This document shows positions 6,001 to 49,794 of a stretch of 64,000 nt of DNA, one piece after another. The number at the start of each line of letters is the position of its first letter. Within the stretch, counting starts at the first letter, position 1. The DNA is from Carpediemonas membranifera BICM. Taxonomy: Eukaryota > Protista > Fornicata. Below the pieces are notes generated by a model. That model was not told the origin of the DNA. It ran no database searches and saw only the letters and a program-made list of their open reading frames with translations. The translations under genes were made by a program, and so were the position numbers. The DNA lies in the NCBI GenBank assembly GCA_019828565.1, contig JAHDYR010000062.1, positions 793,666 to 857,665 of the forward strand. Direction: 5' to 3'.

Positions 6001-7567
6001 CTACGATATAAGCCGCGAGGGGCTCGGCAGCGCGGACGGGTATGTCGAAATAGGGCTGCGAGATGATCGGCGTGAAGCGTGTGGTGCCCACGTATTCTCC
6101 ATGGACAGCCTTCCAACCATTGACGTCGCCGCGCTCGGGCGTGACTGTAAGGCCAAGGTACTCCGCCGCGTCGGGGCGCATGAGGATCGGGAACTGCTCG
6201 TTCGCCGTGTCCAGGCGCACGACGATGGCCTTGCCCTTGGATTCGGCTTGCATGAGAGCCTGATAGACCATGGTGCTCTCGGGCATGTCGGTCATGAGGG
6301 GCTCGACTTGATCGTCAGGGATGAAGGAAACCTTGCCGGGCCGCGGGGCACGCTTGACGGTCGCGGCGGCAGTCCCATAGGCCGGCTCCTTCAGCTTGCG
6401 CTTATCGAATAGCGCCTTGGCCGGGCCGTAAGGTTTCTTCCCGTGCTTATGGCAGGTGGCATAATGAGAGAGCAACTGGGCATCGGTAACGTCCGGGTTC
6501 TGGACGGTCTTGTCGGTCAGCTGCTTACAGACGGTACAGTCCGCCGTGGTGTGCGTCTTGCTCAGGTGGAACGCGCATGACTTGCCGGACGAGCCAGCGG
6601 GCTGGACTGGGCCCTGGCCGGGCTTCCTCGCCTCGGCGGCTGTCGGTCTGGCATGATCAAATGTGTATAGGGGCTCGATAAACTCCGCCTTATCCTTAGC
6701 GAGAATCGCGTTATCGCGCATGGCGTTGATGAGGGTGCTGACGCTTTCACTCGCCCTGTGGATGCGATGATCGGACGTGCCTAGGAGCTGCTCCAGGCTC
6801 CTGGCGTCGAGGTGATCCATGGCGTGGACAAGGATCGTTTTGATCTCGATGCACAAGTCTGTGGATAGTTGTGGTGTCTCATCTGAGTCGTCAGGAGGGT
6901 ATAGGAGCGTATAAAGTCGCTCGAACTCGGCCAGGTAGGTGAGGATTGCTGAGAGCGCCTCCTGGCGCGTCCTGCGTGGACCAGGGCGGGACAGTGCCCT
7001 GAGTGCGGCTTTGCACTTCTCATCTCCAATGCTTGCACTCAAGCGGAACCACTGCATGAAGTTTTGTACTTGTCTGCAGATGGCCTGGGAGAGTGTCATA
7101 TTAGTCGTGTTAGTGGAGGAGGAGGCGTTGGCGGTCTTGAGCTTCTGACGGAGCTCCATCCGTAGGGTTCTGAGTTCCGCCTTCATGGGTCCCACTTCGT
7201 CCTTGAGGGTCTCGTCCTCTTCCGACATGGCGATGAGGGCCTGTAGATTCTCTATTTGTGACTGAGTGTGTCGTGTATCTGCTGACGTGGTCGTGAGAGG
7301 CTTGGAGAGGAACTCCTCAATTTCGTCACCCAGCCGTTGGAGGAACTTCTGAGGACCGGATTGATGTTTCAGCTCGGTGCCCTTGAGCGTGATATAGGGC
7401 ACGTTGGGTCTATATATGGTGTGTATAACCTTCTCGCCAGCGCCAGTGAGGTGTCCTCTCAGGGGCGTGGGTTTCTTCTTCGTTTGGGCTTGCGTCTGAA
7501 TTGCATCGCCCCAAGCGGCCCATTTTGCGATATCCGCAGTGTCGGGCGGCTCAATAGTCTTGTCCAT
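3077..7567 (-). CDS. gag-pol: Gag-Pol polyprotein (Gag, protease, RT, RNase H, integrase, chromodomain)
   Basis: CAFHLSKTHTTADC knuckle; RLDTA protease; DLTAGFHQL/LPFG/FVDD RT; YTDAS RNase H; HHCC + IDTVGP/TDSG/VER integrase; MRGPY; C-terminal VNWLGF chromodomain; single open frame. Confidence 0.96.
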   Translation of the reverse strand: MDKTIEPPDTADIAKWAAWGDAIQTQAQTKKKPTPLRGHLTGAGEKVIHTIYRPNVPYITLKGTELKHQSGPQKFLQRLGDEIEEFLSKPLTTTSADTRHTQSQIENLQALIAMSEEDETLKDEVGPMKAELRTLRMELRQKLKTANASSSTNTTNMTLSQAICRQVQNFMQWFRLSASIGDEKCKAALRALSRPGPRRTRQEALSAILTYLAEFERLYTLLYPPDDSDETPQLSTDLCIEIKTILVHAMDHLDARSLEQLLGTSDHRIHRASESVSTLINAMRDNAILAKDKAEFIEPLYTFDHARPTAAEARKPGQGPVQPAGSSGKSCAFHLSKTHTTADCTVCKQLTDKTVQNPDVTDAQLLSHYATCHKHGKKPYGPAKALFDKRKLKEPAYGTAAATVKRAPRPGKVSFIPDDQVEPLMTDMPESTMVYQALMQAESKGKAIVVRLDTANEQFPILMRPDAAEYLGLTVTPERGDVNGWKAVHGEYVGTTRFTPIISQPYFDIPVRAAEPLAAYIVEDLPVAVLYGTVALRAVGMDFLKNNRAKPESTPSMTKDPTDFRSLFNLFIRSPGESTPTLPTIYDENLGSLAEQFHALVVEYADIFGPFDEQGSDLPPFEIHLKPDVLPSQVLRPIRNKAQKDAMRLFIDDMLAKNIISATTDTLDWLSPVFMVDKPSATPPFRPVLDYRALNDATRPEIYTMPTADELFEQCRGAEVFASFDLTAGFHQLVMDPDSAKLTGFEFDDVRYIFNRLPFGVTNGPMAFQKRIDDLRRQYKLPCLAFVDDILCFAGSVQQLLDVLRELFPVLQQHRIRLSGRKSHIGLKEIVYLGCLVSGTGVRIDPARVESIHKLSTPRTAKMAHHIVGIFGFVRRHIPDFIRLAAPLEALKNGETVEPEQLEWAMTSLKQAVARQIELTHFDPNSRVDLYTDASTTGIGAVLMQGDRPLAFYSRRFDKQQQVWKIVEQEMFAVYSALERFRSLLIGTETILHTDNSCLVQMVSSDTPKVIRWALEIARFPVTEIVHVPGDMNTAADGLSRLPFVMSVIATSGLTDTQKRERFLMVHHRHHAGLETTLALLEKAGLLWASARTDVDKMIKRCVTCQRDRATPNVAYNPGHLPPARPLATLYIDTVGPIDRPDNGYRYIMTCIDSATHLTHLIPLKTLDARSTIRAIRSQIIARWACPDTIVTDSGTQFCNAEFDHFCATFGIIHHNTTPERHEGNALVERTNREVNKHLRISLSSLPDCSRAGWRSAMIQAEININATPSRVLGGATPREAALAAALAYHQVKNAEPSTRTAITDETMKNAAEVLGKLQEFQLRQKGVKDQYYPSARFTSLPLGSWVLVKRDKPISRLQYTMRGPYYVQGNGEEPDSYVLVNPVTRKTIIRFADRLAKLPNTGPTLTMAEAARAFTADSNWKVVDHVVQYRLDSQTNEPIVTVNWLGFEHDEDSELAFSDCMTLDALLKYRDQHPQFDRACKRFEATTRNHPRPRR

Positions 7568-7645: not shown

Positions 7646-9463
7646 ATGTTTCACTGTAAGAGTTACACCACCGGGTCCACCACTACGAATGCAGCAGACT
7701 ATGCTAAACCACAGTACTACCGCCAGCATACTTCGATCTGGAAACAACCCAATGAGAAGCTCTGCAAATACAACCTTTCGAAGGGCGAACAACAGTACAA
7801 GAACGAGAACGACTTTGTTGCATCCATTCCCACACGCTGTTTTGCTGGTGAGGACGTTATCGCCTGGTCTTACGCCCCTTCCTCCGGGAAAACATCACTC
7901 GCACTCCTCACAACAGAGGACACGCTCAAGACTTCGCTGTTGAACGCAACTGAAGACGTTAAGACGAAGCTTAAGCAGCAGATTGGCCCTAAAGTAGCTG
8001 ATCGCTTTACAGATGACCGGTTGCTCAGCCATCTCTCCACCGTGTTCGAGCCCTTCAGCAAGGCATTGCTGCACCATACCGCTCAGCCCGACGCCGTCGT
8101 GTTTGTTTACCTCCCCGAGCACGATTTCGGCTTCGTCGAGCTGTTGTTTGAGGCGAAGCGCGCTGGTAATTTGTCTGGTAATGTTCTTAATGCAACAGGG
8201 CAGGCCTTTGTATACGCCGAGACTCTCCGCCTAACAGTCATGCACGTGGTGCAGAAGAGGTTTGGCAGCGCGGATTGCTCAAAGGTCCCCGCTGTTCTCG
8301 TGGAGCGTTTCCCCGTCATCTCTTTGAGTTCCGCGCACGGCGTTGTGGGTCACCTGACGCCAGTTGGCGAGTTTGGCGTGTTCGCAGGCCCGTTCCCCGA
8401 TGGTTACAACTGGACGTGGACGTGTGATAATTCTGCGGAACTGAACGTCGAACAGTTCGTCGAGATGCAATGGAGCTACGTCATCGCTACTGCACGCACG
8501 CTTAACACTCAGCTGTGTGATACCGCCTCCTGGAAGCTGTTCTTCCCAACCAAGTTCTGTCCACAGGGCTGTGCAAAGGAGTGTGCGCGGATGGTCACCA
8601 CCTCTAACTCATTCCTGTACTTCTACGAGGATGGCGACCATAACAAGCTGCTGGCCAAGTTCGACCGCCACAGCCTTGGGCGCGCTGACCCCTCGTCACA
8701 CTTCATGAGCAACCGTGACCATTTTTCTACGTTCCGTAAGATCATGAACCATGTATATTGCGAGTGCTCAAGTGAACCAGTGGGAGACGTGAGGGAGAAG
8801 CCCCCCCAGATTGTGTCCATACGCCCAGGTGCGCGGCATTGGAAACAGGTCAAGCCCATCTCCGAAGATTCGCTCTCCTATTCACTCCAGCGTGATCTGA
8901 CGTCGACTCACCGCTTTGACATCACCGCTCTGATCTGCGCGATCTCTTCCCACCCCAAGCTGTTCGTCCAAAACATGATCCAGCAGCTCTGCAACATTTA
9001 CTGTGATGATGTCTATGGCGTCTGTTCCACGATTCTTCATCGCGACGCACGTCTCTGCAACATCTGCGTCATCAACAAGCTGCCCGATGCTGACTTTACT
9101 TTCGCCCCCGACGCCGAGAAAGGGGACGTTGCGTTCCGCCTGATTGACTGGGAGTGGATGCAAGTGTTTGGTGGCTTTCTCCTTGTCGATGGGGATGCAG
9201 AACAAGCCCGCCGATCCCCCAACAACGTCGACCATGTAACCTCCACTAGTTGCCAGCTGGCCCAGCTGATCGGCAGCATGGAGCATTACAATCATGTGAA
9301 CAAGGTGGTAGGGATGGACAACGCTTTGACGTTGCTGGAGTCGTTGCAAGAGACCGTGACGACATTAGGTGAGACGATAAGAAAGGCAAGCTACGAAGAG
9401 AGACTCGCGAAGTTTACTTCGCACATTGACCAGTGGAGTGAGCAGAATCTGGCGAGAGAGTAA
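7646..9463 (+). CDS. Nuclease-kinase copy 2 (first codons at 2976-3002 split off by the Gypsy insertion; alternative C-terminus)
   Basis: Near-identical to copy 1; 12-bp insertion (NLSG); ends TVTTLGE...NLARE. Confidence 0.8.
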   Translation: MFHCKSYTTGSTTTNAADYAKPQYYRQHTSIWKQPNEKLCKYNLSKGEQQYKNENDFVASIPTRCFAGEDVIAWSYAPSSGKTSLALLTTEDTLKTSLLNATEDVKTKLKQQIGPKVADRFTDDRLLSHLSTVFEPFSKALLHHTAQPDAVVFVYLPEHDFGFVELLFEAKRAGNLSGNVLNATGQAFVYAETLRLTVMHVVQKRFGSADCSKVPAVLVERFPVISLSSAHGVVGHLTPVGEFGVFAGPFPDGYNWTWTCDNSAELNVEQFVEMQWSYVIATARTLNTQLCDTASWKLFFPTKFCPQGCAKECARMVTTSNSFLYFYEDGDHNKLLAKFDRHSLGRADPSSHFMSNRDHFSTFRKIMNHVYCECSSEPVGDVREKPPQIVSIRPGARHWKQVKPISEDSLSYSLQRDLTSTHRFDITALICAISSHPKLFVQNMIQQLCNIYCDDVYGVCSTILHRDARLCNICVINKLPDADFTFAPDAEKGDVAFRLIDWEWMQVFGGFLLVDGDAEQARRSPNNVDHVTSTSCQLAQLIGSMEHYNHVNKVVGMDNALTLLESLQETVTTLGETIRKASYEERLAKFTSHIDQWSEQNLARE

Positions 9464-9972: not shown

Positions 9973-11193
9973 TTACTCAATTGGCTTCATATCCGCCACC
10001 TTCTGGTAGACAGTCATACACTGGTCGCAGAACCTGACACGATAGTCCTGGCCGTCGAGATGGAACTCAGCATAGCTGAAGTGTTTCTCTTCGCAGAACC
10101 AGTTTAGGCACGCCCGGCAGACGCCAGTGTCCTTTGTCGACTTGTCTCCGTCCTTGATACACGCGTGACATCTGTTAGACCTTCCTGCCAGACTGCAAGC
10201 TGCGCAAACCTTTCTGTTCTTACCATCAATCCTCTTCTCTCTGACACACTGAAGATGCATGAACTGATGGCAGAGATAGCACGTTTCATACTCGTTTCTT
10301 TTCATGTTTGGGTTGAAGTACCATTCAGGTGAGGCACAAACAGCGCATGCGAACAGTAACTTACGCTGATATAGCTTCAGAAACGTCGCTTGCTTGAGGG
10401 CGGGGACCTTATCGTTCATTTCAACGGCCTTGGGTGACTGCTTGAGGAGATCAGTGACAGTTGTGGAGAGTGAAGCCGTCACCATCGCGGCAACCTCCTT
10501 CAAGTCAGCCTCTTCGAGCCTCGATCGCTTCTGAGCAGGCTCATGCATCTGCGCATCAAAATTAAGCTTCTTGACGGGGGAATCAGGCTTGATGGTAGCC
10601 AAGTCAGCTCTTTTTCTGAGCTTTGGTACCAATGTTGTCACTGGAGTCTTTGTGGGTGTCTCTGCGGGTGTTTCTGCTGGGGTACGTGGCTCAGGCTGGA
10701 GCTTGCGATGCTTGATCCTGATTACAACGGCTGGAGGCCATTGAATGCCGGTGCAAGTGATCAGACTGGAGACATCGTGGAGTCCAAGTCCCCGAAACAG
10801 CACAGACATCCTGTTTCTAAACTCCTGCAAGTGTTCAGCTGCATTTGCTCTGTCTCTGACAACCAGGTAGGGTATCTTTGTGCCAATGAGCTCTGTGCCA
10901 CCCTTTCTACTTGCCACAAATGCCTGAATGGGCTCAGTAGTCGTGCGCCTGACGGAGTTTGCAATAGCAATCTTGCGAAAGCCGTTGCAGAGGCCCGATA
11001 TCACATCCTGCATGCCAAGGAGAGCGCGATGAACGTCAGAGGTCGTCAGACCGATAGTTGGGATGTCCGCGACGTCGAAAAAGCATTCCAGGAAGCTAGT
11101 CACGAACAGCCGGCGGTACTCTGTTCTCTTATCCGATCCGCAAGACGTGCCCTGCGAAATCTCAGCTTTCTTCGCAGTTTCACTGGTCGTCAT
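9973..11193 (-). CDS. PHD-finger protein with second C-terminal zinc finger
   Basis: CAVC...CYLCHQFMHLQC...CAAC = C4HC3; then CHAC...CRACLNWFCEEKH...FCDQC. Confidence 0.8.
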   Translation of the reverse strand: MTTSETAKKAEISQGTSCGSDKRTEYRRLFVTSFLECFFDVADIPTIGLTTSDVHRALLGMQDVISGLCNGFRKIAIANSVRRTTTEPIQAFVASRKGGTELIGTKIPYLVVRDRANAAEHLQEFRNRMSVLFRGLGLHDVSSLITCTGIQWPPAVVIRIKHRKLQPEPRTPAETPAETPTKTPVTTLVPKLRKRADLATIKPDSPVKKLNFDAQMHEPAQKRSRLEEADLKEVAAMVTASLSTTVTDLLKQSPKAVEMNDKVPALKQATFLKLYQRKLLFACAVCASPEWYFNPNMKRNEYETCYLCHQFMHLQCVREKRIDGKNRKVCAACSLAGRSNRCHACIKDGDKSTKDTGVCRACLNWFCEEKHFSYAEFHLDGQDYRVRFCDQCMTVYQKVADMKPIE

Positions 11194-11443: not shown

Positions 11444-11577
11444 CACGTTATTATCACTTTGAATAAGCAATGAATGGTTATGCAACATCAGCACCTACCT
11501 ACGAATCACAAGAATGCCCCTAGCACGTCGTATGCAAGCAAAAATGAGACTTACCCGTACCTTCCGCACGTTTCTCT

Positions 11578-11715
11578 ACGTTTCACCAATGTTGGTGAAA
11601 CGTGTGAAATAGTGAAAAAGATACGGGTGAATCTCATTTTTTCTTGCAGTTTCTTGTGCAAAAGGGTGTTTATCCTCCGTATATCCCCGGATTAACTGGC
11701 CATTCTAACAGTATG
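11578..11715 (+). mobile_element. Candidate DNA-transposon terminus A
   Basis: Shares TCATTTTTTCTTGCA...CCGG..TTAA...AACAG(T/C)ATG with 46652-46743 and abuts the truncated start of the 2202-bp array. Confidence 0.5.
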
Positions 11716-12338
11716 GTCACTTGCCATCTGGCGCATCATGAGGAGATATTGGAATGTGTTGATGTGTTTATTGACTAAATGAGCTGGAATTAGGCGGGTT
11801 TGATGTTGCTTACATGTTCTGTGGCATGCCTGATGTCCAAAGATGTATTTTGGCACAGTGATGTTGTTTAGTGTGCTCATAGCTGACCGCGTAGTTATCT
11901 TACTTCAATGTGTCGTGTTGGTGCCAAGAAATCGATGGTAGCTCGCACGTTTGAGGTAGTTGCTTGTTGCATCGATGCAACGCACTTTAAGGATTAAAAA
12001 GCTGTACCCCATAGCCGTTTCCTAAGGCCAAATGCGGCCCTCTCTAGCGTATATACACGCGTGTATTGGGACTAGATGGGACTAGATGCAGTGTTGTGGC
12101 ATGCCCGGTCTAGCTGAATCCACAAATGTGGATCGGCTCTGGCTGCCGTATAGGTGGCCATGCTTTGAACTTATGGCTGGAGACTGATACAATTGGCAGG
12201 TAGTTGACTGGTACGTGCTCATATGGACAACCGACGGCCATTCACTGGCAGGGCTCGCTTCGCAACAGACAGGCGCTCCCTGGGGCTTGGGGCTGTGCAT
12301 GAGCTTAGACAATAATCGTGGGTCAGTCTGACACCTGT

Positions 12339-13223
12339 ATGGACATCAACGCGGTCGTAAGCATGCTTCACCTTGTTTTGCCGCAGTTTATGGACGAAAT
12401 GGATGTCTTCACAGGAAAGCACTCATCCTCTGAGCATTTGCGGTATCTCATGACAATGCTCGCCGCAGTCGATGTTCTTCGGGGATCCTCGCAATCCATA
12501 AGAGGCGAGCGCCACGGAAGGGCATACTCCAAGACTATTCACACCGAGTTCTTGCGGTCCTTCCTTTTGTTGGAGCGGGAAGTGCTCAACGAGGATCCAG
12601 AAGCGCTAGAGAAGATGGATGCATTGTATTCGGGCGATCGCGAGGAAACAATGAAGATTGTCGAAGTGCACGACGGAGAAGAGGATGAGCCACCCGTAAC
12701 CAGCGCATCAAGCTCGCATAAGACAAAGAAGGCCCACAAGCGTCGGCTACTTTCGGCAAGGAAGACCCAGAAGCTAACTTTTCCGTCAGAGATTGTCCAT
12801 CCCGATGATGCTGCCTTGCCGGTGGAGAGAAGTGCGTTCCTCCAGAAGTATCTCAAGACGATCAAAGCTAGATTGCCTTCACTAGAGAGGTCAGTCGAGC
12901 GTGTGAATCGGCTGGGGGACATGCAAACTTCCCTGGCGTCACTCAACCATATTGCCGACAGCCTCTCTGAAGAGAACCTCACGGTGATGCGTATTTACGT
13001 TGCGTATAACCTAACTCTGTATGACTATATAGCGAAGGATAAGTTTACTGTGGACCCGATAATTGCTCCAACAGCTGAACTGACTAAGATGGCCGAAAAA
13101 CAACGCAGCGAGTTCATCAGCCGTAACCAGAGTTACTGCACAACCCGCACTCGCAGGACTAACAAGTCAAGCTTCTATAATGATGTACAGAAACATGCCA
13201 CGAATATGGGTGTGAGAGCATAG
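12339..13223 (+). CDS. Hypothetical ~295-aa protein, copy 1
   Basis: Long ORF with acidic and basic (KKAHKRR) patches; no family recognised. Confidence 0.65.
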   Translation: MDINAVVSMLHLVLPQFMDEMDVFTGKHSSSEHLRYLMTMLAAVDVLRGSSQSIRGERHGRAYSKTIHTEFLRSFLLLEREVLNEDPEALEKMDALYSGDREETMKIVEVHDGEEDEPPVTSASSSHKTKKAHKRRLLSARKTQKLTFPSEIVHPDDAALPVERSAFLQKYLKTIKARLPSLERSVERVNRLGDMQTSLASLNHIADSLSEENLTVMRIYVAYNLTLYDYIAKDKFTVDPIIAPTAELTKMAEKQRSEFISRNQSYCTTRTRRTNKSSFYNDVQKHATNMGVRA

Positions 13224-13246
13224 AACGAAGCCACATCATCATCGGC

Positions 13247-13603
13247 ATGATGTTGCTGACATACGCCGACTTCGGCAAGTTCCTGGAGGCTGGTTTGATT
13301 CCCAGGGACACGGGTGATGCGAGAGAGTTGGCAAACATGGTCTTGGAGAGCTTCTTCATGGCATATAACAGCGAGGGAGGAACGCGTGCAGCACTCATGC
13401 AGGAACTGAAGGATGGAGTAACTGACACAGACAGGCTATCGATGATGGAGCAAATGTTTGCGCTTTCTGTGGAGACGAACTCCCTGACGTATGTCAAGCC
13501 ATCGCCCGAGACGGAATGTGAAGAGAGAAGTGGGTCTGGCAAGCGGAAAGGCAACGTGACGGAGTCAGGCGATGATGATGGGAAGCGAGCACAGTTGGAG
13601 TAA
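13247..13603 (+). CDS. Hypothetical 118-aa protein, copy 1
   Basis: Ends GKRAQLE with stop inside AGTAAA. Confidence 0.6.
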   Translation: MMLLTYADFGKFLEAGLIPRDTGDARELANMVLESFFMAYNSEGGTRAALMQELKDGVTDTDRLSMMEQMFALSVETNSLTYVKPSPETECEERSGSGKRKGNVTESGDDDGKRAQLE

Positions 13604-14540
13604 AGAAGAATCAGTCAAATTTAAAGATAAGAGTGCAGTGCGGAGGAACACTCTCATTCTCCGAATTGTTGTTCATGCGAAAGAGGATGTATTTGTGGAA
13701 CTCGGAGTCACTAATGCGATCTTCACTCAGAGCCTTGAACCATATGCTAAACTCATTCGAGAATGTCGCCAAAACATAGGCACACCATCGATCGAAGAGG
13801 GAAGCCTCGAAGTCGAAGGAAGCATGGATATAGGTTGCCAAGTCTTTCTTTCCGACTCGTAGGCCAACCTTCATGTGTAGACTTCTGCATTGTCATTCAC
13901 CGGAGGAGCAGGCCAGAGTCACTTGCCATCTGGCGCATCATGAGGAGATATTGGAATGTGTTGATGTGTTTATTGACTAAATGAGCTGGAATTAGGCGGG
14001 TTTGATGTTGCTTACATGTTCTGTGGCATGCCTGATGTCCAAAGATGTATTTTGGCACAGTGATGTTGTTTAGTGTGCTCATAGCTGACCGCGTAGTTAT
14101 CTTACTTCAATGTGTCGTGTTGGTGCCAAGAAATCGATGGTAGCTCGCACGTTTGAGGTAGTTGCTTGTTGCATCGATGCAACGCACTTTAAGGATTAAA
14201 AAGCTGTACCCCATAGCCGTTTCCTAAGGCCAAATGCGGCCCTCTCTAGCGTATATACACGCGTGTATTGGGACTAGATGGGACTAGATGCAGTGTTGTG
14301 GCATGCCCGGTCTAGCTGAATCCACAAATGTGGATCGGCTCTGGCTGCCGTATAGGTGGCCATGCTTTGAACTTATGGCTGGAGACTGATACAATTGGCA
14401 GGTAGTTGACTGGTACGTGCTCATATGGACAACCGACGGCCATTCACTGGCAGGGCTCGCTTCGCAACAGACAGGCGCTCCCTGGGGCTTGGGGCTGTGC
14501 ATGAGCTTAGACAATAATCGTGGGTCAGTCTGACACCTGT

Positions 14541-15425
14541 ATGGACATCAACGCGGTCGTAAGCATGCTTCACCTTGTTTTGCCGCAGTTTATGGACGAA
14601 ATGGATGTCTTCACAGGAAAGCACTCATCCTCTGAGCATTTGCGGTATCTCATGACAATGCTCGCCGCAGTCGATGTTCTTCGGGGATCCTCGCAATCCA
14701 TAAGAGGCGAGCGCCACGGAAGGGCATACTCCAAGACTATTCACACCGAGTTCTTGCGGTCCTTCCTTTTGTTGGAGCGGGAAGTGCTCAACGAGGATCC
14801 AGAAGCGCTAGAGAAGATGGATGCATTGTATTCGGGCGATCGCGAGGAAACAATGAAGATTGTCGAAGTGCACGACGGAGAAGAGGATGAGCCACCCGTA
14901 ACCAGCGCATCAAGCTCGCATAAGACAAAGAAGGCCCACAAGCGTCGGCTACTTTCGGCAAGGAAGACCCAGAAGCTAACTTTTCCGTCAGAGATTGTCC
15001 ATCCCGATGATGCTGCCTTGCCGGTGGAGAGAAGTGCGTTCCTCCAGAAGTATCTCAAGACGATCAAAGCTAGATTGCCTTCACTAGAGAGGTCAGTCGA
15101 GCGTGTGAATCGGCTGGGGGACATGCAAACTTCCCTGGCGTCACTCAACCATATTGCCGACAGCCTCTCTGAAGAGAACCTCACGGTGATGCGTATTTAC
15201 GTTGCGTATAACCTAACTCTGTATGACTATATAGCGAAGGATAAGTTTACTGTGGACCCGATAATTGCTCCAACAGCTGAACTGACTAAGATGGCCGAAA
15301 AACAACGCAGCGAGTTCATCAGCCGTAACCAGAGTTACTGCACAACCCGCACTCGCAGGACTAACAAGTCAAGCTTCTATAATGATGTACAGAAACATGC
15401 CACGAATATGGGTGTGAGAGCATAG
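14541..15425 (+). CDS. Hypothetical ~295-aa protein, copy 2
   Basis: Identical to 12339-13223. Confidence 0.65.
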   Translation: MDINAVVSMLHLVLPQFMDEMDVFTGKHSSSEHLRYLMTMLAAVDVLRGSSQSIRGERHGRAYSKTIHTEFLRSFLLLEREVLNEDPEALEKMDALYSGDREETMKIVEVHDGEEDEPPVTSASSSHKTKKAHKRRLLSARKTQKLTFPSEIVHPDDAALPVERSAFLQKYLKTIKARLPSLERSVERVNRLGDMQTSLASLNHIADSLSEENLTVMRIYVAYNLTLYDYIAKDKFTVDPIIAPTAELTKMAEKQRSEFISRNQSYCTTRTRRTNKSSFYNDVQKHATNMGVRA

Positions 15426-15448
15426 AACGAAGCCACATCATCATCGGC

Positions 15449-15805
15449 ATGATGTTGCTGACATACGCCGACTTCGGCAAGTTCCTGGAGGCTGGTTTGA
15501 TTCCCAGGGACACGGGTGATGCGAGAGAGTTGGCAAACATGGTCTTGGAGAGCTTCTTCATGGCATATAACAGCGAGGGAGGAACGCGTGCAGCACTCAT
15601 GCAGGAACTGAAGGATGGAGTAACTGACACAGACAGGCTATCGATGATGGAGCAAATGTTTGCGCTTTCTGTGGAGACGAACTCCCTGACGTATGTCAAG
15701 CCATCGCCCGAGACGGAATGTGAAGAGAGAAGTGGGTCTGGCAAGCGGAAAGGCAACGTGACGGAGTCAGGCGATGATGATGGGAAGCGAGCACAGTTGG
15801 AGTAA
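15449..15805 (+). CDS. Hypothetical 118-aa protein, copy 2
   Basis: Identical to 13247-13603. Confidence 0.6.
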   Translation: MMLLTYADFGKFLEAGLIPRDTGDARELANMVLESFFMAYNSEGGTRAALMQELKDGVTDTDRLSMMEQMFALSVETNSLTYVKPSPETECEERSGSGKRKGNVTESGDDDGKRAQLE

Positions 15806-16719
15806 AGAAGAATCAGTCAAATTTAAAGATAAGAGTGCAGTGCGGAGGAACACTCTCATTCTCCGAATTGTTGTTCATGCGAAAGAGGATGTATTTGTGG
15901 AACTCGGAGTCACTAATGCGATCTTCACTCAGAGCCTTGAACCATATGCTAAACTCATTCGAGAATGTCGCCAAAACATAGGCACACCATCGATCGAAGA
16001 GGGAAGCCTCGAAGTCGAAGGAAGCATGGATATAGGTTGCCAAGTCTTTCTTTCCGACTCGTAGGCCAACCTTCATGTGTAGACTTCTGCATTGTCATTC
16101 ACCGGAGGAGCAGGCCAGAGTCACTTGCCATCTGGCGCATCATGAGGAGATATTGGAATGTGTTGATGTGTTTATTGACTAAATGAGCTGGAATTAGGCG
16201 GGTTTGATGTTGCTTACATGTTCTGTGGCATGCCTGATGTCCAAAGATGTATTTTGGCACAGTGATGTTGTTTAGTGTGCTCATAGCTGACCGCGTAGTT
16301 ATCTTACTTCAATGTGTCGTGTTGGTGCCAAGAAATCGATGGTAGCTCGCACGTTTGAGGTAGTTGCTTGTTGCATCGATGCAACGCACTTTAAGGATTA
16401 AAAAGCTGTACCCCATAGCCGTTTCCTAAGGCCAAATGCGGCCCTCTCTAGCGTATATACACGCGTGTATTGGGACTAGATGGGACTAGATGCAGTGTTG
16501 TGGCATGCCCGGTCTAGCTGAATCCACAAATGTGGATCGGCTCTGGCTGCCGTATAGGTGGCCATGCTTTGAACTTATGGCTGGAGACTGATACAATTGG
16601 CAGGTAGTTGACTGCTACGTGCTATGGACAACCGACGGTATGCCTGTCTGGGCATCAGCGCTGTCGTTCAGGCCAATCCACGTTTGTGGATCCGTGCAGT
16701 TTATGGTTTCTCGGCCTCC

Positions 16720-16900
16720 ATGCAACAGCCCTGCCTCACCATCGGTATCGACGTGTACTGCGGCAAGAACAGCTTCACCCAGGGCGAGGATAACGTCCGC
16801 CAGGGTCAGCGCCGCTCCGTCATCGGCATGTCCGCCTGGTACGTCGAAGAGCAGGGCCACCTTGAGACCGTCAACCGTCCCGTCGAGACCATCGCCCGCT
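16720..16900 (+). pseudogene. Captured Argonaute/PIWI-domain gene fragment
   Basis: QQPCLTIGIDVY...RRSVIGMSA matches the first catalytic-Asp strand of PIWI (xGIDVxH...RRSIAGFVAS); GC3-rich codons unlike flanks. Confidence 0.7.
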
Positions 16901-17424
16901 TGGCGAGTAAGCGCTACACTACCGCTTCACCAGCCCTCCAAGGCAGCGTTCTGGACCTGCGTCATCTCCGGCGAACTGGAATGATCCAAAGTAACGGTGT
17001 AGTGTTCTTTCTGGCAGCTAATTGTGCATAAGCGAATGCTTTGTGGTCATTTATTGCTCTTTGGCGCAGCAACGCCCACAACTCTTTGGGATACTGTTCT
17101 TTTGGTGTTGATGTTGTTATTGATGTTGATTTCTCCGCTTTTCGCTGCTTTGCGTTGTAATTGCAATGTTTTCTAGTACATTCCGCGCATCAGATCATTG
17201 CTACAACCTGAACTCGCCATTTTGGCGTTGCAATGAAACTATCCCCTAAAGTGCACACTAAATGAAATCAGAACAATTTGTGGCCAGCTGCGCCAAGTGG
17301 GAAGTTTCAGTCTACTCTGTGCGTTAAAAGGTCACCATACTACATCTTCGTGGTTCGGGATACGTGCATTTTCGTGTCAATCAAACTTTTACTTCGTTCT
17401 CACCCTCTGGACTGGATAGAAATA

Positions 17425-19821
17425 CTACATCCGTGCCCTCCGCTGCTGAAATTGGATCTCATCGTCTGAAATCAACGCGCGACGTTGATCAAGGTCGGCT
17501 TGCTGTTGGCGTGACTGCCGTGCGTCGGGCCGCACCCCAGGATCAGATGGACGTTGGCAGATACAGACTGTACAAGTAGAGTTCTCATCATGGTGGTCTC
17601 CTACAACGCATGTGAGATAGTCACCATCAGTTATAAACGAGTCAGGGACGGCATTGTTGAGATGCTGCTGAAGACCGTCACGTAAAGCTGCTAGAGTGTC
17701 CTGAACGGAACCTTTGAAATTGTCATTCACCTCTTTGGAAGTCCCAAACATGCGGTTTCGCCAGCTGAATGCAGAACTGGCATCCCACAGACATTTGTGA
17801 AGACGAATCCGGTTGACGTGAGTCTGCAGTGGCGCAACGTCTGTGTGCTTTCGAGACGTCCGAACGCCAGTGATAAAGGCTGTCAACCGCCTGACCTGCA
17901 GCTTCTGACAGTTGTACAGCAGCGTTCTCACACGATGCTTCTCTCTGTGAACAATTGCGTCGAGCAAAAAGTCTCGCTCGAAGTACTCCTCCAGGAGATT
18001 GAAGAGTGGAATGCGCAGCCTGTGGCACACTTCTGGCAAAACTGCAATCAGGTCGTGCATGTATAACGACCCTGCAAAATCGCCCGTGTCGTAGCGGAGG
18101 TAGGGCTTCTGCCGAACATCTCTACCGGCTTCAGGTTCCTGGGCGTCATGGTTGTTGCGGTTCCGAGGCTGCTGGGCAGTCGGTAAGACCAGGGTCGAGA
18201 CATGGAAGAAGTAGAAAGTAACCATCCCCATGAAAAACAGCTTGCGAACAGTATAATCCGTCACGGGCGCCTTGGAGTAGAGCAGAGCCTGGAGATGACT
18301 GATGATCAGAATGAAGGGGCGGAGAGTTTCATCAAAGCTGTGGAGGTAATCGTTGGACAGAACGGCAAGACGGTGTCTATTCCAACTCTGTTCGTTGCAT
18401 CCCGTCGTGCGGGTGAAGGCAGCATCGATATGGGTCTGCAGGTGGTTGCCGCGAACAGCTGGAGTGAATCGTTCCAGTAGAACCCACATCTGCCTCATGA
18501 GCTCGTGGCTGACGTGCATCACTGGAGGGCAGACGATGACTTGACTCAGACTGGGAGAATTGACGTAAAATTGTCTCGTGTCGTTATCGTAGTGGCAGAA
18601 TAGTGGTGTCTGGACCTGGCCATTATCCAGACTATGAAACAGGGTCGTCTGGTGTTCACCATTGAGTAAGGTGGTTCGGCCCTGCACGGTCTGTCCCAGA
18701 GTCAGCCGGCTACAGAACGCATCGTACGGGTTTCTTGGCAGAAGGGGAAATTCAATTGCCGAGAACGGCGACCTGCTGTATCCGCCCTTGCTCACCCCGC
18801 AGATGATCTGCATGGCCTTGTGGTCTGCCAGTATCGCAGTAAGTTCCACCTTAACTGTACAGTTGGGCATCATGAAACACTTATCGTAAGAGATTGTCGT
18901 CGCCTGGCGGATGAGATTCTCGATGACGGCTGAGTGTTTGTGGAGGTCACCCTCATCTCCACTGTACTGATAAATCGTATAGGGAGGAGTGATCAGCTGC
19001 GGGAGAACTTTGCCGGAGGAGTCATAGAGTCTGACCTTGACCGCCGTGGAGGCCTTGCGGTAACCGTCAATCCAGACAAATAGCTGGATCGTCTTCACAC
19101 TCGCAGAAGAGGAATCTACCGAGTTTCGCATTGCCGTCTTCGCGACAGTGAAGCTGTTTTTGGCACGTTCGACTGAAGCGGGATTGTCGAGAGCGAATAT
19201 GATCCATTTCCGAAGGTTGTATGTCAGGCTAGATGCATACTCATGGCGACTGTTATGATACCGGCGGAACACGACGTCGTTCGCTGAGAGACGCTGGCAG
19301 ACTGCGTCAATTTGACCCTCGTATGGCGACAGAATAAGGACACCTGAACCCCCTACTGAGAACTTCTCGTGGTGGAAAACATGCTCAGAGACCAAATATT
19401 CGTCAGTGCGGAAGAGGCTGAGGATGGAAGTCGTCTGCTCCTGCTGACAAGCGATTTTTATGCTGTTGTCTGACGCAACAGTCACAGGGAGACCAGAAAA
19501 CGCAGCAGTATCAGGGTTGACCATAGACAAGCCGCTAAATCCGTCAAAGATAAGGCTGGCCGGTGTGTATGCTGCCATATCAGTGACCAAGGCTGGATCG
19601 CGGAGATTTCGGTTCAGTGGGCCGTAATCAAGAAGACTCGGGCCAATATCCTTGAGGGGCTTCGCCGGTGGGAGTTGTGGAACTCGATCGGCGACGTTCA
19701 TCGCCTGATTGGTGTCATCATCATCCACTTCGCCGACTTCACTTCCTTGCTGAAGAACCGAATGATCCCGAAGGATAACGATACAGTCAGGGGCTTGAGC
19801 ACCCTCATTGTTCACAGTCAT
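17425..19821 (-). CDS. RAG1/Transib-like DDE transposase, paralog 1
   Basis: Ordered motifs WIDGY; LADHKAMQIICGV...SPFS; PPVMH; LYMHDLIAVLPEV...LLEEYFE parallel RAG1 SCDGM; GYDEKLVREVEG...CTLC; IDALH; NYFHKTLAHVPEI...ASEGNE. Confidence 0.72.
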   Translation of the reverse strand: MTVNNEGAQAPDCIVILRDHSVLQQGSEVGEVDDDDTNQAMNVADRVPQLPPAKPLKDIGPSLLDYGPLNRNLRDPALVTDMAAYTPASLIFDGFSGLSMVNPDTAAFSGLPVTVASDNSIKIACQQEQTTSILSLFRTDEYLVSEHVFHHEKFSVGGSGVLILSPYEGQIDAVCQRLSANDVVFRRYHNSRHEYASSLTYNLRKWIIFALDNPASVERAKNSFTVAKTAMRNSVDSSSASVKTIQLFVWIDGYRKASTAVKVRLYDSSGKVLPQLITPPYTIYQYSGDEGDLHKHSAVIENLIRQATTISYDKCFMMPNCTVKVELTAILADHKAMQIICGVSKGGYSRSPFSAIEFPLLPRNPYDAFCSRLTLGQTVQGRTTLLNGEHQTTLFHSLDNGQVQTPLFCHYDNDTRQFYVNSPSLSQVIVCPPVMHVSHELMRQMWVLLERFTPAVRGNHLQTHIDAAFTRTTGCNEQSWNRHRLAVLSNDYLHSFDETLRPFILIISHLQALLYSKAPVTDYTVRKLFFMGMVTFYFFHVSTLVLPTAQQPRNRNNHDAQEPEAGRDVRQKPYLRYDTGDFAGSLYMHDLIAVLPEVCHRLRIPLFNLLEEYFERDFLLDAIVHREKHRVRTLLYNCQKLQVRRLTAFITGVRTSRKHTDVAPLQTHVNRIRLHKCLWDASSAFSWRNRMFGTSKEVNDNFKGSVQDTLAALRDGLQQHLNNAVPDSFITDGDYLTCVVGDHHDENSTCTVCICQRPSDPGVRPDARQSRQQQADLDQRRALISDDEIQFQQRRARM

Positions 19822-20052: not shown

Positions 20053-20292
20053 ATGGATTGCAAATGAGTCTTTTTAATGTCTCACCACCTGTTTGGGCCT
20101 CAGCGCTGTCGTTCAGGCCAATCCACGTTTGTGGATCCGTGCAGTTTATGGCTTATCGACCGGACATCTCCTGAACTGAGCGCCAGGGGGCGGAGGTGGC
20201 GTTGGCGTGGGGCGTGGAGGCGCTGGGGGCGGGGGTGGCGTTGATATTGGGCAATTACATAAAGTGCACGGTGCTTGGAATTTCATTCCAAC
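19963..20292 (+). repeat. Left arm of ~330-bp inverted repeat
   Basis: Reverse complement of 42674-43004. Confidence 0.92.
20093..20292. promoter_or_regulatory. ~200-bp module: palindrome, outward-facing ATAAA(C/G)TGCAC boxes, G-rich core, TTTCATT Inr-like (putative bidirectional promoter)
   Basis: Recurs inverted at ~34532-34731 and every ~2036 bp to 42872; partial copy at 16645-16706. Confidence 0.55.
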
Positions 20293-22855: not shown

Positions 22856-23744
22856 ATGGTTTGATGTGTTCGGCTGTCTTTCATCTGTGAAATGAGAACA
22901 GGCGTGAGTGTCATGGACACAGATGGCCCGGACAGCGTTGCCAGTTAAAATGTCCGGTATGGAAAGTTGGAATCACCAACCGGAACAAAGCCAAGCGCCG
23001 AGGAATGATAGCCATTGGCGATTCTTTCGAGGTTTATAGAGCTCAAAACAGAGCGGCGGTGACCTATAGCGCGGAATGCCACATTTTGGTCAATTCAGCA
23101 TCGGGAGTTCTCCTGCTCGGGGAATACCAGCAGGAACAGCATAACTCTTTACCACTTCTACCCATAGGGCGCACGAGGCCTCTCTCTAGCCTCCTCGATG
23201 AGATCGCCTGAGACCAAGTCAAACGGAAGCGAAACGGGCCGGTGGCAGAAAACTGGAAGATGCGAGCGCCGGAGGCACGAGCCGTCGCCCCTGAAACCAC
23301 CCTGCCTGCCTTGTATAACCCGCTAGCGGACGGGCGCTGTGCTTGGGTTGGTTCTCTGTGCTCCCTAAAGTGCACCCTCTGGGGCAACGAAACCCGTATG
23401 GGCATGGAGCCCCCGGTGAGCGGTCTGATGGGATATTACCATCCAAAAGACCAAGGGAAGCTTACCGCCCGGACGTTCCTCAACCCACAGGGCAAAGAAC
23501 GTCCAGAGGAGCCCCCAGCAACATGCCAAGGGCCCTCACCACTGCAACCAAGCCGAAACCAAGGTATGAACTCATGAATTTAGTAGGAATGACGCGCAAC
23601 TGGAGGGAAACCCAAATGGCGCCCTGTGGCCGCGCTCCCCGCTGGGAGAAGGGGAGAATGCCGGGGCCCAGCAACCCGAGTGGTAGGCAGATACCGCAAG
23701 GAACAGCAGCAACATGGTCTCAACCCCCATTCAACCCTGGGTGT

Positions 23745-24525
23745 TTACTGAGGAGTCCCGGCGCCCAGGAACTCCACTGAGGGGCTTCCGTCGGCAAGGA
23801 AATGGGAAACCGAAGGGACATACTGCCTAAGGGCCCGCTCAAGAGCGCCCCTGCTGCTGCGATACATAACCATCTGGGACTGAGAAGTGCGCTGGAATGC
23901 CAAAATGGCCTGTAGGTTCTCGACAGGCTGATCCTCGTCGGTCCCCTCATGGAGCATGTCCACGAAGGCATAGGCACACGAGTGCCAGTCCATGGCGATG
24001 CGATCCAAAGTGCTGAGAGCGTCGAGGGCTGACGCAAGTGGAGCCACAGGCTGACGAACGGTGCGAGCCCCAGCTGGGGAGGAAGCCAATGGCGTGACAA
24101 ACGGGGCAGCGCCCTCGCCGTTGTGAGGACCGGGGGAAGCAGGGGACCGGGCCAGCTGGAGGCGGCGGGGGACGGCTTTCCCCTGGAAGGAGCGGAAGAG
24201 TCGGCGTTGAGGACTCCTGAGGCCCCATCCCACCAGGTTGGGGAGCAGAGGCGCGGGCGCTGCGGGAGGAAGGCAATGCCAATGACCCGGGGGGCAGCTC
24301 CTCCACAGAGGACGATGTGGTGGAAGAATCCGACCCCCAGCCCTCTCTAGGGGTCTGGGGCTCCGCCGCGGCAATGCCTGGGCCTTGGAGGTGATCGGCA
24401 TGAGGGCCAAGAGGGGAATCAGGTACCTTAGAAGGCTGAACCTTAGCTGCGGCAATGCCTGGGCCTTGGTGGTAGTCGCCAGGCGGGCTAATGGGTGTAA
24501 CAGGAACCAAATGTGGTGAACTCAT
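23745..24525 (-). CDS. Antisense ORF in the LINE A 5' region (one frameshift)
   Basis: Pro/Ser-rich N-terminus then helical domain ALDALSTLDRIAMDW...; stop inside AGTAAAC. Confidence 0.45.
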
Positions 24526-24686
24526 ATTATGGCTACAAGGTTCGCAACCGACCCCGCATCTCAGGCAATAGGCCACACCTCCCCGCCCCTGCTCGGAAAG
24601 GCCAACGTGCAACGCCACAAGGCTATGGTGTGATCAGGTGATGGAGCACTAAAATGCACACTCCTCATCCGAGCCACCGGCCGGCA

Positions 24687-26150
24687 ATGGACGCGTTTCC
24701 CAGGAACCCACAGGGCGGGTACGTTGCCCGAGCAGAAGATCTCCTCCCCGAGCATCCCATAGGGCCTCCTCTACGCAAGGAGCGCACGAGAACCGAGAAA
24801 ATCGCCGACTTGATCCGGATGTACGGCGACCTAAAAGGGTATAGCAAGATAAAGGATCCCTTCCCCCCAGGAGTGGATCACCAGCTACAGTGGTGGCAGA
24901 ATCCCAGCCGAGAAAGGGAAATAACGGCTACCCAAATGCTAGAAAATGACATCCTGCTATACCACTACGCCCTGATAACCGGAAGGCCATGGTGGGTAAG
25001 CCAGGCGGCCTGGAAAATCCACCGCGAGGACCAACAGCGCCGGCCACTGCCCCGATGCGGGCCGGCCTTCGTGATGTTCACCTCCAAGGCCGATTACTCC
25101 CTGACCCCGGGTTTCCCAGCCTACGAGCGCCGGCAACGGCGCCTACAGGCGAGGCGGGCAGGGAGGGCTCCCGCTCCGGGGGATTCATGCCGACTTTCCC
25201 CCTCCGACTTTTCGAGACCAATTTCGGCCACAAACACAAAGTTCCCCCAACAAGCCATGGGCCGGGGGAATGATGTAGACGAAGCTGGAACAGAGCTCAC
25301 CAAGCTTGGAAAACGCTTAGCTACGACCGAAGAGTGGCAAAAAGTCCGAAGAGCAGCCGATTCCATCCTCGCCAAGTGCAACAACACCACAGTGATCTTC
25401 TCGAGGGATAACGCCGCCAACTTCAAGGTATCAAGCCCGCCACCGGCTAGATCCTTGCTGTTCGAGCTAGTTGCCAGCACTCTCAAGGCCGCAGGTCACC
25501 AAAGCCTCACAGGGCCTGGGATCAGGACAAGGTTCGGCCAGCAGAGCGCCGCCTGGCTCCTCAAGGCAGGCGGCCAAGCCACAGCCGGCTCAGCGAAAGC
25601 GCCAGGTGCGGACAGAGCCCACAACAACGTCAACAACAAGTGGGCGGCCCTAGGTCGGGCCTGGGAGGATGCCCCCGTCCCCCTTAGCCCCAGACCCCCA
25701 GCAGGAGGCTTCCCCCCCCTTGACGGACAGGCCGTCAAGCCCTGGGAAGGTGGCATGTTCTCCGCGATAGCTGTCTACAGCAGGACCGATGGGGTGACCA
25801 GACCTGTGTTGGTTAGCAGGACACCCACGGATTCAGCCCTCAACATTGCCGGCGACGAGCTAGCGCGCAGTGAGGCCGAAGACTTAGTGCTTCGCTGGAC
25901 GGTTCCGGGCTTCAAAGAGCTGTGGGCCGCATGGGATACTACTACCCGGCCAATGCCGGCCCCTGAGTTCATCCACCCGGACCTCTGCGACGCTTCCACC
26001 CTCGTTAGCAGGATCGCAAACATCTGGATGGCGGACCAGGGTACCAAGCTGCTCGCCACCGAATCCACAGGGGGACGGCCCGCCCAAGGGCAACGAGCAA
26101 ACCGACAACCCACCCCACGAGGGCAACCCGGTCACCCCCCCACCGAATAA
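24687..26150 (+). CDS. LINE A accessory ORF (~487 aa), unknown function
   Basis: Long open frame preceded by TAAAATGCAC and a TCAT Inr-like motif. Confidence 0.65.
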   Translation: MDAFPRNPQGGYVARAEDLLPEHPIGPPLRKERTRTEKIADLIRMYGDLKGYSKIKDPFPPGVDHQLQWWQNPSREREITATQMLENDILLYHYALITGRPWWVSQAAWKIHREDQQRRPLPRCGPAFVMFTSKADYSLTPGFPAYERRQRRLQARRAGRAPAPGDSCRLSPSDFSRPISATNTKFPQQAMGRGNDVDEAGTELTKLGKRLATTEEWQKVRRAADSILAKCNNTTVIFSRDNAANFKVSSPPPARSLLFELVASTLKAAGHQSLTGPGIRTRFGQQSAAWLLKAGGQATAGSAKAPGADRAHNNVNNKWAALGRAWEDAPVPLSPRPPAGGFPPLDGQAVKPWEGGMFSAIAVYSRTDGVTRPVLVSRTPTDSALNIAGDELARSEAEDLVLRWTVPGFKELWAAWDTTTRPMPAPEFIHPDLCDASTLVSRIANIWMADQGTKLLATESTGGRPAQGQRANRQPTPRGQPGHPPTE

Positions 26151-26535
26151 TGGCAGAGCAAGTGCAGGTGATAGCCCGCCCAACGGCGGCCCAAGGACGG
26201 ACCCACCACCAGGGGCAACCTGGGGGTTGCCCCGCACAACGGCGGCGACCCGACCACTGGCCAACCCAACATGGGCGATCCAGTCGCCCCCTCGTTCATT
26301 GGGGGCGAAGCAGGTTGGAACCCAACTAGCGGGGGAACCCCGCCACCATGCCCAGCGGCGAAAGTGCGGGCTCGGAGACCGGGGGTACCCAAGATGGCCC
26401 CCGGCCCAACGCCGACGACTCGGCCAGAAGAGTCCCTGGCAGTGATAGTGACGTCAACCCGCCAAGGGGTAGAGAACTGTCAGCCAACAGCAGACTCCCC
26501 CGTCCTGCCCGCTCACCAACCCGCAGGGCAAGAGG

Positions 26536-28145
26536 ATGCTGATCGGGTGCATTGACTTCGAAGCGTCCAAACCCGCATCCAAGGCGGGGGATGAGGCCGT
26601 CATATGCGAAGGGGCGGTCATAGTCTTTGACCCCGCCAACGGGAATATCGTCGCCAGTCTGCACGGGATGTTAGGCGAAGATATTCGGGTGGCCGACCTC
26701 GACCAGGCTCTGATGAGCTCAAGAATTCTCCACGGTTGCCCCCCAGCCACCTTCGTCGACATCACCACTGGGCAGGCCCCCAGGGATTCGAAAGCACATT
26801 CCCAAACAGCACCACATGGTGCGCGGAAATGATCGATGCCCTCCGGCGTCTCGAAGGACACCATAACGCGTTCATCCACCTGACTGCCAAAGGGGTGGAA
26901 GCTGAACGAAGTGTCCTCACGAGCGCCAAATACGTACCGGATTCCACGGCCAGGGCATGGGTAGCCACCCACCTAATCGATGAAGCCGGCCTAGATGCGG
27001 TGTACCCCCGTCTCAATAGCACCCTCACCCTCTTCTACCCCCCCTCCCAGGAGGACCGCCCGGTCCGAGAGACCCTCCCACAGGAGGACCAGAAGGCAGC
27101 CGAGCAGGCCAAGGTCTGGACCCGCGACCAGCAAAGGAGAAGGGAACCCAAGGGGCTGTGCCCCTATCACAGGAACGCACCAGCCTACTGTCACTGTGCG
27201 CTTGCGGATGTATCGCTCTTCTACACAAGACTCTCCCTGGCCATCCACATGCTGTATAACCCGTGGACCTGGGCTGATGTGGGAGCGGAACTAATCGCAC
27301 GAGGAGGGAAAGTGACGGGGGCACAAAGCCCCATCATTAGAGTAGGACACGGGGTCCCAGACCTGGCTGTAGAGATCAACCGCCATAGAGGGCGAGAGGT
27401 CATCACACCCCTGGGGCAACTACAGCACGTGATCTTTACCACCAAGCCGCGTCCGAAGGAAATCCACATGGCCAACACGACCGCGCAAGAGTTCAGCACA
27501 GGAAAAGGAATCCTAAGGGTCCTTGAAAGGAGGGGCGTAGCCGTTCTCAGCCCGGACTCCTGCCCAAGCACGAGACCCCTGGTCGTGGAGCTCCTATCCG
27601 AGTGGAACGGTAGGCGCCGCGTAGCAAGGGAGAAGGGCTACTGGCCAGACTTCTATGGCAACCGTACCACCCTGGACCCCAGGGTCATGGAGCAACTCCC
27701 GGTCAAACTCCACCCCGAGCTCCTGACCCTATCCCAGGCAGCCTCGCTGGTCCCGCTCCATAAGCATGACATGATGCATGGGGGCTCAGCCCAGCAGCTG
27801 AGACACCGGCTCACCCACTGCCTGGTGAACATCGGCGATAGAGCACCAGCGGGCGTCCCGAAACTCATCGTAAGCGCGGAACTCCGGCGCCAAGATAGAG
27901 GGCCCAGGCATTATGTCAACTTCTTCCCCTCGGTTCTTCCCCTAGACTGGGGCATCCGCACAGTAGAACAAGGAGGGGAGCCTGGAAGACGCCGCCCGAG
28001 CGCCTTGGGCGAACCCCAATACGACGGCACCCTGGCCCTGGGATGCAGTCCCATGATGAGACTACCCCCATCCGCCTGTGGGACTTCCCGTACACCCAGA
28101 ACAACGACGGGCACAGGTCGCAGCGAGAGCAAAAAGAGGCTGTGA
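26536..28145 (+). CDS. LINE A ORF with Maelstrom-like DEDDh nuclease domain (~26536-27230); frameshift near 26780
   Basis: CIDFE..ICE..LHGCP | TAKGVEAE..CPYH..HCALADV = DEDDh plus Maelstrom zinc motif. Confidence 0.75.
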
Positions 28146-28520
28146 CCGCGGCAAGGGCCGCGCTTAGAGCCTGCCTCGAAGAGCACCGGGAGAGGCTCAC
28201 CAACGAGATTCACCAAGGCATGGAGTGGCCGGCCCTAGGGCTGCTTGAGGGCCCGCTCACCGAGAACCGACAGGTCCCCACCCCGAACCCATCTCAAAGG
28301 AAGGTGAACGCCACCCCCTCCCCCAGCAGGCTCCAAGGGGAAACAAACCCCACCCCCAACCCGCGCCAGGTAACCCCCGCCCACCCCACCCCAAGGGCAA
28401 TCATCACCCCTAATGCGCACCAGGTAAGCCCTGCTTACCCCACTCCCAGAGGAATGAACCCCCCCACCCGGCCCCGGGACAGGCGATCCTCACGCCTCAC
28501 AAAGAGGCCAACCCCCGGCG

Positions 28521-46651: not shown

Positions 46652-46743
46652 TCATTTTTTCTTGCAATCGTCCTTTTTTCATGTATTCCGGGACTTATTC
46701 CGGGACTTAAAGTCCCGGTTAAAGTACCAGAAAAAACAGCATG
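46652..46743 (+). mobile_element. Candidate DNA-transposon terminus B with TATTCCGGGACT x2 and an inverted AGTCCCGG
   Basis: Abruptly joins the middle of a Gypsy integrase; similar to 11634-11715. Confidence 0.55.
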
Positions 46744-49724: not shown

Positions 49725-49794
49725 CTTTGTCAGTGCCGACTCCGCTTGCCGGCTGACTCTCGCGATCAGTCCCGATCGCGGCCCAGTCGAGCGA

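Follow-up and report, generated by a model that had tools for sequence, protein, structure and literature searches.

Seven captures of piwi or aub pieces, and one of an nxf2 piece, have been described for the telomeric retrotransposons of Drosophila. The captured pieces are 140-235 bp long, with an identity of 76-95% (Son et al. 2026, PMC13534243). They are regarded as tools of counter-defence, and targeting of the host genes is presented in that paper as not yet shown by experiment. For TART-A and nxf2, antisense piRNAs have been reported, together with reduced expression and a relative-rate test (Ellison et al. 2020, PMC7785250). Pieces of host genes are also hosted by CACTA-related DNA transposons, as in Pack-CACTA or Pack-TYPE transduplication (Catoni et al. 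2018, PMC6379663).

The locus described in this work resides in the metamonad protist Carpediemonas membranifera BICM, within a stretch of 64,000 nucleotides (contig JAHDYR010000062.1, assembly GCA_019828565.1), hereafter the window. As in the piwi and aub captures, a short internal fragment of a PIWI-clade gene (186 bp, 90% identity) is found in a mobile or, here, transposon-like element, and has been amplified in copy number. In both cases the fragment is proposed to give rise to small RNAs antisense to the host gene, and the host region may be diverging, the evidence being suggestive here (PMC13534243). The Drosophila carriers are Jockey-clade non-LTR telomeric elements, for which piRNA data are available; here, in contrast, the fragment is accompanied by a DDE-transposase-like gene and by tandem cargo arrays. 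The locus shares with TART-A a captured piece of a silencing gene, and a host gene plausibly evolving away from the captured copy, but the target of TART-A is a cofactor and not Piwi itself (PMC7785250). It differs from Pack-CACTA and Pack-TYPE elements because no pair of TIRs with a target duplication was found, transposase-like genes reside at the locus, and the cargo derives from a silencing gene (PMC6379663). As the anatomy is that of the Drosophila telomeric captures, while carrier and lineage are not, the locus may work alike without being a member of that group.

The C. membranifera genome encodes 8300 predicted proteins, and the assembly is reported as 99.27% complete (PMC8516963). The main text of the genome paper has no occurrence of 'transpos', 'Dicer' or 'Piwi'. 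No description of the captured piece was found in the literature combining Carpediemonas with Argonaute, Piwi or transposable elements, a search which reached few of the subscription papers.

The Piwi fragment and its donor

An earlier note, made from the letters of the window, had read an Argonaute/PIWI peptide in frame at 16720-16900, had described its GC3 as host-like, and had anticipated a parent PIWI-domain gene in the host. All of this holds, and the true extent of the piece is slightly wider. The host-derived segment spans 16714-16899 on the forward strand (186 nt, 62 codons; tblastn E 4e-31), and corresponds to residues 562-623 of the C. membranifera Piwi-domain protein KAG9396300 (P0002), from which it differs at 6 of 62 amino acids and 18 of 186 nucleotides (56/62 and 168/186 identical). 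It includes D574, the first catalytic Asp, and leaves out the other residues of the tetrad; it is thus neither a gene nor a full-length Argonaute with N, PAZ, MID and PIWI domains. Searched alone against Pfam and PDB the piece had no match, so that its identity rests on the host gene.

The borders of the piece are sharp. A 2423-nt contig, found in two public runs, aligns exactly on 16714-16899 with 18 differing letters and no gaps, and its overhangs translate to the P0002 residues lying on either side of 562-623. As the overhangs are host Piwi sequence, both breakpoints are fixed. No run found to contain the sequence is registered as RNA. The contigs of two runs, X1 and X2, are near-identical, and may derive from one data set. 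Among the contigs of four public runs over 15900-18000, which leave 17249-18000 uncovered, none carries the element version of the piece or bridges its junctions; contigs document presence and not absence, and this result was not counted as evidence.

Codon usage sets the piece apart as well. GC3 is 0.89 at 16714-16899, and falls in the same frame to 0.57 before and 0.48 after it; the rise to 0.87-0.93 takes place between ~16726 and 16905, and the ORFs of the element itself range from 0.59 to 0.69. Between 9660 and 46700 (~37 kb), the piece is the only island with GC3 ≥0.875 outside a long ORF, in a scan which would miss older or non-coding captures. The comparison with the host gene indicates that the piece was almost certainly captured from an Argonaute-family gene of the host. 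The opposite direction, a host gene taking the segment from the element, was rejected, since this stretch belongs to the conserved core of PIWI.

A search of longer proteins gave two matches among 14 candidates, namely the protein predicted in the window itself and the 823-aa 'Piwi domain' protein P0002. In the search of representative proteins, five of the seven matches were dropped as donors: the window's own protein and P0009-P0012, long proteins matching in 5-10 short stretches, among which P0009 is a repetitive surface-type protein. P0002 carries the PF02171 domain (E 7e-38), and its best PDB matches are of the PIWI clade (E 2e-24, vs 1e-17 for Ago2), the top six being all Piwi proteins. 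Judged by its Pfam domain and nearest PDB matches, the donor is a Piwi-like gene. It is single-copy, being the one member of its protein cluster. Slicing Argonautes feature the catalytic tetrad D-E-D-H. By alignment, the donor tetrad is D574-E625-D660-S797, and departs from this pattern; because of S797, the donor is predicted not to slice. In turn, a second host Piwi (P0013, KAG9390027), 39% identical to the donor overall, features the tetrad D545-E593-D635-H770. The pair of D-E-D-S and D-E-D-H proteins suggests, at the level of aligned residues, a non-slicer and a slicer. These are the two Piwi genes found among the 8300 predicted proteins. A metagenome scan with the donor gave 13 pattern matches, none of which was confirmed, and thus no outgroup orthologue.

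Modules flanking the fragment

The features of the locus are listed in Table 1. The earlier note had placed a palindrome module on one side of the piece, and on the other an Inr-bearing repeat at ~17240, facing the piece antisense. The palindrome module is found directly upstream of the piece; it is 74-76 nt long, and the window has six further copies of it. The palindrome at its core, ATCCAC-N4-GTGGAT, was counted 18 times, always within 12118-42845, against a mean of 0.00 in 100 shuffles. The six other module copies continue into a GC-rich stretch, and into a GTGCAC...TTTCATT motif located ahead of an ORF; at 16713, the Piwi piece interrupts this order. As for the repeat, the antisense orientation stands. 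The motif GTGCAC-N9-14-TTTCATT is present at 17256-17232 on the reverse strand, with AAAATGGCG after it, an order seen also in the HEPN array, in the promoter of its 159-aa ORF. There is no long repeat: only ~24 nt (17215-17238) recur elsewhere in the window, which indicates a shared promoter-like motif instead. The motif is found eight times in the window vs 0.03 expected, and at 17256-17232 it opens an ORF of only 15 codons. From its position before ORFs, we infer that the motif is a promoter. Pairs of GTGCAC and TTTCATT spaced by 9-14 nt, seen also at 20260-20290 and 47170-47200, may represent a general core-promoter motif of C. membranifera.

Table 1. Features of the Piwi fragment locus and of its surroundings in the window
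Feature	Position	Strand	Remarks
Tandem 2202-bp units (294-aa and 118-aa ORFs, each unit with palindrome), directly upstream of the Piwi cassette	11716..16638	+	
Chimeric 135-aa frame (module, Piwi piece and downstream block)	16624..17031	+	listed in public sets as a predicted protein
Palindrome-bearing module of the element (palindrome at 16676-16691), truncated at the start of the Piwi piece	16641..16713	+	93% to six other copies in the window
Captured fragment of the host Piwi gene (codons 562-623, first strands of PIWI with D574)	16714..16899	+	56/62 aa; 18 differences in 186 nt; GC3 0.89
Block separating the promoter-like motif from the Piwi piece	16900..17179	-	joined in a public contig to other sequence without the piece
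Predicted promoter: GTGCAC...TTTCATT initiator-like motif, then AAAATGGCG	17215..17256	-	antisense to the Piwi piece, 339 nt away
798-aa DDE-transposase-like ORF, converging on the Piwi piece	17425..19821	-	CACTA/Plavaka/Transib-RAG1-like lead
Tandem 2035-bp units: weak HEPN-like ORF and 159-aa ORF, with palindrome and promoter modules	34258..42876	-	
Paralogous transposase-like ORF, 33% identical to the 798-aa ORF	43162..45510	+	frame ends before that of the 854-aa copy P0037

The block downstream of the piece exists in another arrangement, since a public contig (run type guessed as RNA) joins 17179-16902 to 16081-16170 of the opposite strand, the Piwi piece being absent. Within the window, the piece follows only one of the seven module copies. 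As the block too is found without it, members of the family do not carry the piece invariably. The antisense RNA predicted over 17238-16640 shows nothing unusual in its structure (z -0.58), and a mechanism based on hairpin RNA was rejected on this ground. The chimeric 135-aa frame running through module, piece and block is probably not a real protein.

Copies of the fragment and their carrier

The earlier note had asked for retention of the piece across copies of the element. Proteins of the chimeric frame form a cluster of seven variants, all of which were read and found to include the piece, at ~12 gene places on at least five contigs, several lying on one contig. These counts come from annotated proteins, and broken or unannotated copies are missed. 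Five contigs were told apart by their distinct lengths. A sixth is inferred because one copy of the piece, KAG9394548, sits between two HEPN-like genes, KAG9394547 and KAG9394549. On two further contigs, four and six accession numbers separate copies of the piece from proteins of the paralogous transposase-like cluster (KAG9393515/9393519 and KAG9394022/9394028, respectively), closeness being measured by adjacency of accession numbers and not by reading the DNA. All variants but one (91%) are 98-100% identical in amino acids, which points to a recent amplification. A PIWI-domain gene therefore matches the piece, and the piece occurs at many places rather than in this copy only; on these two points the earlier note had declared that its reading could fail.

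The 798-aa ORF has Atlas features of 0.91-0.94, and both it and its paralog are placed near the Transposase_21, Plavaka and RAG1 clusters, which are leads and not proofs. Structural TM for the transposase-like ORF is up to 0.61, on low-confidence models, and two Asp columns and one Glu column are invariant in its three relatives (3/3). It has no match in Pfam or PDB, and profile searches with its alignment reach only two proteins, and give no PDB match. The single-sequence fold of the 798-aa ORF (pLDDT 35) was not used. A C(2)C motif is given for the CMCT clade, which groups EnSpm/CACTA, Mirage, Chapaev, Transib and Plavaka (PMC12730594). The transposase-like proteins lack C(2)C at the expected place, and have a His pair spaced H(2)H. 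For these two reasons the ORF was not filed in the CMCT clade, from which the carrier differs also by the absence of a Pfam match.

Termini of the CMCT type (CA..TG, flanked by a 2-5 bp target site duplication) were sought, and candidate inverted 15-mers were found at 11533 and 46652-46666, with flanks devoid of duplication; other searches for element ends retrieved 10-11-mers only. An imperfect inverted repeat of 116 nt lies at 11533-11648, and one of its arms recurs exactly (15 nt) 35 kb away at 46652-46666; possibly, they mark the termini of the element, or a MITE. The transposase-like gene, and its co-location with the piece, support the view of the carrier as a transposon. The carrier is not of the telomeric Jockey-clade non-LTR type, the adjacent gene being DDE-transposase-like, and the nearest RT/endonuclease ORFs (29719-31729) have no repeat in common with the Piwi cassette.

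Other elements in the window

The window hosts three tandem arrays of near-identical gene units, at 11716-16638 (2202 bp), 34258-42876 (2035 bp) and 49738-60315 (~2930 bp). Palindrome and promoter modules are common to the first two, which adjoin transposase-like genes in the manner of cassette arrays. An ORF of 316/335 aa, located at 34811-35761 (-) and in the repeats, has weak HEPN matches (E 0.01-0.08, below cut-off) and is found on several contigs; it is a possible RNase cargo. A 406-aa ORF at 9973-11193 (-) has a weak PHD-finger match (E 0.013) and eight cluster members on several contigs, and could be an accessory gene reading chromatin. An ORF of ~605 aa, with no Pfam match, is present in six copies at 7646-9463 and 49699-60425; it features an HRD motif, presumably akin to a kinase catalytic loop. 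Retrotransposons are represented by an intact-looking LTR-retrotransposon polyprotein of 1496 aa (RT, RNase H, integrase) at 3077-7567 (-), and by non-LTR retrotransposon-like sequences, whose endonuclease and RT pieces lie in split frames, at 23400-34200, between the two transposase-like genes, and at 60918-64000.

Divergence of fragment and donor

The 18 differences between piece and donor comprise ~11 silent and ~7 replacement changes. Eleven of them, away from the ends, were listed directly (4 replacement, 7 silent); the other seven were deduced from the protein alignment, three as replacements (P565, A570 and F614, assuming one base each) and four as silent. The resulting dN/dS is ~0.15 (7 and 11 differences over 144 and 42 sites), and the probability of so few replacements, if the piece is neutral and the host constrained, is 0.012-0.03. 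A neutral element branch would explain 1-2 of the 11 silent changes, and leave ~9-10 for the host; by these counts, the differences seem to be mainly on the host side. The piece in turn is not conserved as a protein, and is decaying, as the element has substitutions at P565, H577 and F614, residues common to the two host Piwis, and two of the seven variants no longer have D574.

Within 16812-16842 (31 nt), the piece differs from the donor at three positions, and at one from the contig of the second Piwi P0013. This match of 30/31 may reflect a shared codon preference. Codons ending in C account for 26/31 in the piece, which keeps the preferred type. In the donor they account for 23/32 inside the captured region vs 14/16 in the flanks, hand-counted from the contig overhangs, a difference which is not significant (P 0.29). 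In the central 124 nt, piece and donor share no perfect 21-mer, and 31, 45 and 28 of the 104 windows have one, two and three mismatches, respectively. Any targeting occurring today would thus need tolerance of mismatches.

Discussion

The explanation that we favour, if only tentatively, is that the piece has been kept and amplified as an antisense template which dampens the host Piwi, i.e. that it has a selected anti-Piwi function. According to this hypothesis, an RNA would start at the ~17238 motif, run for 339 nt, and then proceed antisense through the piece; read-through from the converging transposase-like gene would yield the same antisense RNA. Piwi would be loaded with small RNAs cut from the RNA of the element, and guides stemming from the piece would pair with the mRNA of the donor and, over 31 nt, with that of the second Piwi. 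The host Piwi would be dampened, and silencing of the element eased. The silent excess would reflect a host gene moving away from the guides, by drift or under selection. What argues for such a role is the identity of the donor, the ~12 copies near transposase-like genes, the antisense motif and the silent excess. That the target is one of two Piwi genes in 8300 proteins, and the piece the sole high-GC3 island, favours selection as well; the two-in-8300 argument is inflated, because the finding was picked for its recognisable motif. The counter-silencing device, as the earlier note had called it, may by now be partly worn out.

A real possibility, though a rather doubtful one, is that the piece was copied in once at a repair or rearrangement event, and amplified along with arrays and elements in the absence of any function, as in a neutral Pack-type capture. 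Its location at the junction of modules which occur elsewhere in other arrangements, the replacements at conserved residues, inclusive of the loss of D574 in two of seven variants, and the lack of a perfect central 21-mer with the donor all fit this scenario, and capture of host DNA is ordinary for CACTA-like elements (PMC6379663). A neutral origin is harder to reconcile with a sole host-like island in ~37 kb which happens to derive from a silencing gene, with ~12 copies, and with a silent excess that is unexpected if the piece alone decays. The last point would find a simple answer if the source were not the present donor but an allele that had diverged, a paralog since lost or a related lineage (e.g. 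a horizontally moved element). The silent excess would then date to purifying selection before capture, with no arms race, and the piece may have no function at all. A dN/dS of ~0.15 is what one would see between two functional gene copies, and the retention of C-ending codons is in keeping with such a source; yet no closer donor was found among annotated proteins, where the donor cluster has one member, or among contigs matched at 85%, and the reported completeness of the assembly (PMC8516963) speaks against one. We regard a diverged source as improbable.

Action at the protein level is very improbable. A chimeric peptide of 103 or 135 aa could act as a decoy, or as a dominant negative, against Piwi or its partners, and the frame through the piece is indeed open in all seven annotated variants, features an ATG start inside the piece, and has a low dN/dS. 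Annotation, on the other side, takes open copies only, a β-hairpin of 62 residues is unlikely to fold alone, the conserved H577, F614 and P565, and sometimes D574, are changed, and on the sense strand the module upstream lacks its promoter part. We give equally little credit to the idea that the arrays are silenced loci supplying small RNAs, and that the piece tunes the level of Piwi to the benefit of the host and not of the element. Tandem arrays of element pieces are reminiscent of small-RNA clusters, and the piece could touch both Piwi mRNAs, but the copies are young, as judged from the identity of all variants but one, and are dispersed with transposase-like genes, and the host gene seems to be losing its match to the piece instead of preserving it.

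Conclusions

Returning to the anti-Piwi role, the locus may, and we state this with more reserve than the role itself, belong to a new lineage of cassette-carrying DNA transposons of a metamonad which has independently evolved the trick known from Drosophila, a stolen Piwi fragment in antisense knocking down both host Piwis, and the donor escaping by silent substitutions. Even if neutral, the piece explains ~12 spurious annotations of 'hypothetical protein', and marks a seemingly undescribed transposase-like family. If the anti-Piwi reading is true, Piwi-guided defence against transposons would be active in Carpediemonas, and eukaryotes of different supergroups, with transposons of different classes, would have converged on anti-Piwi capture. 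The metamonad being free-living and culturable, and the element of another class, such a case would demonstrate this convergence and make it testable in a single-celled organism.
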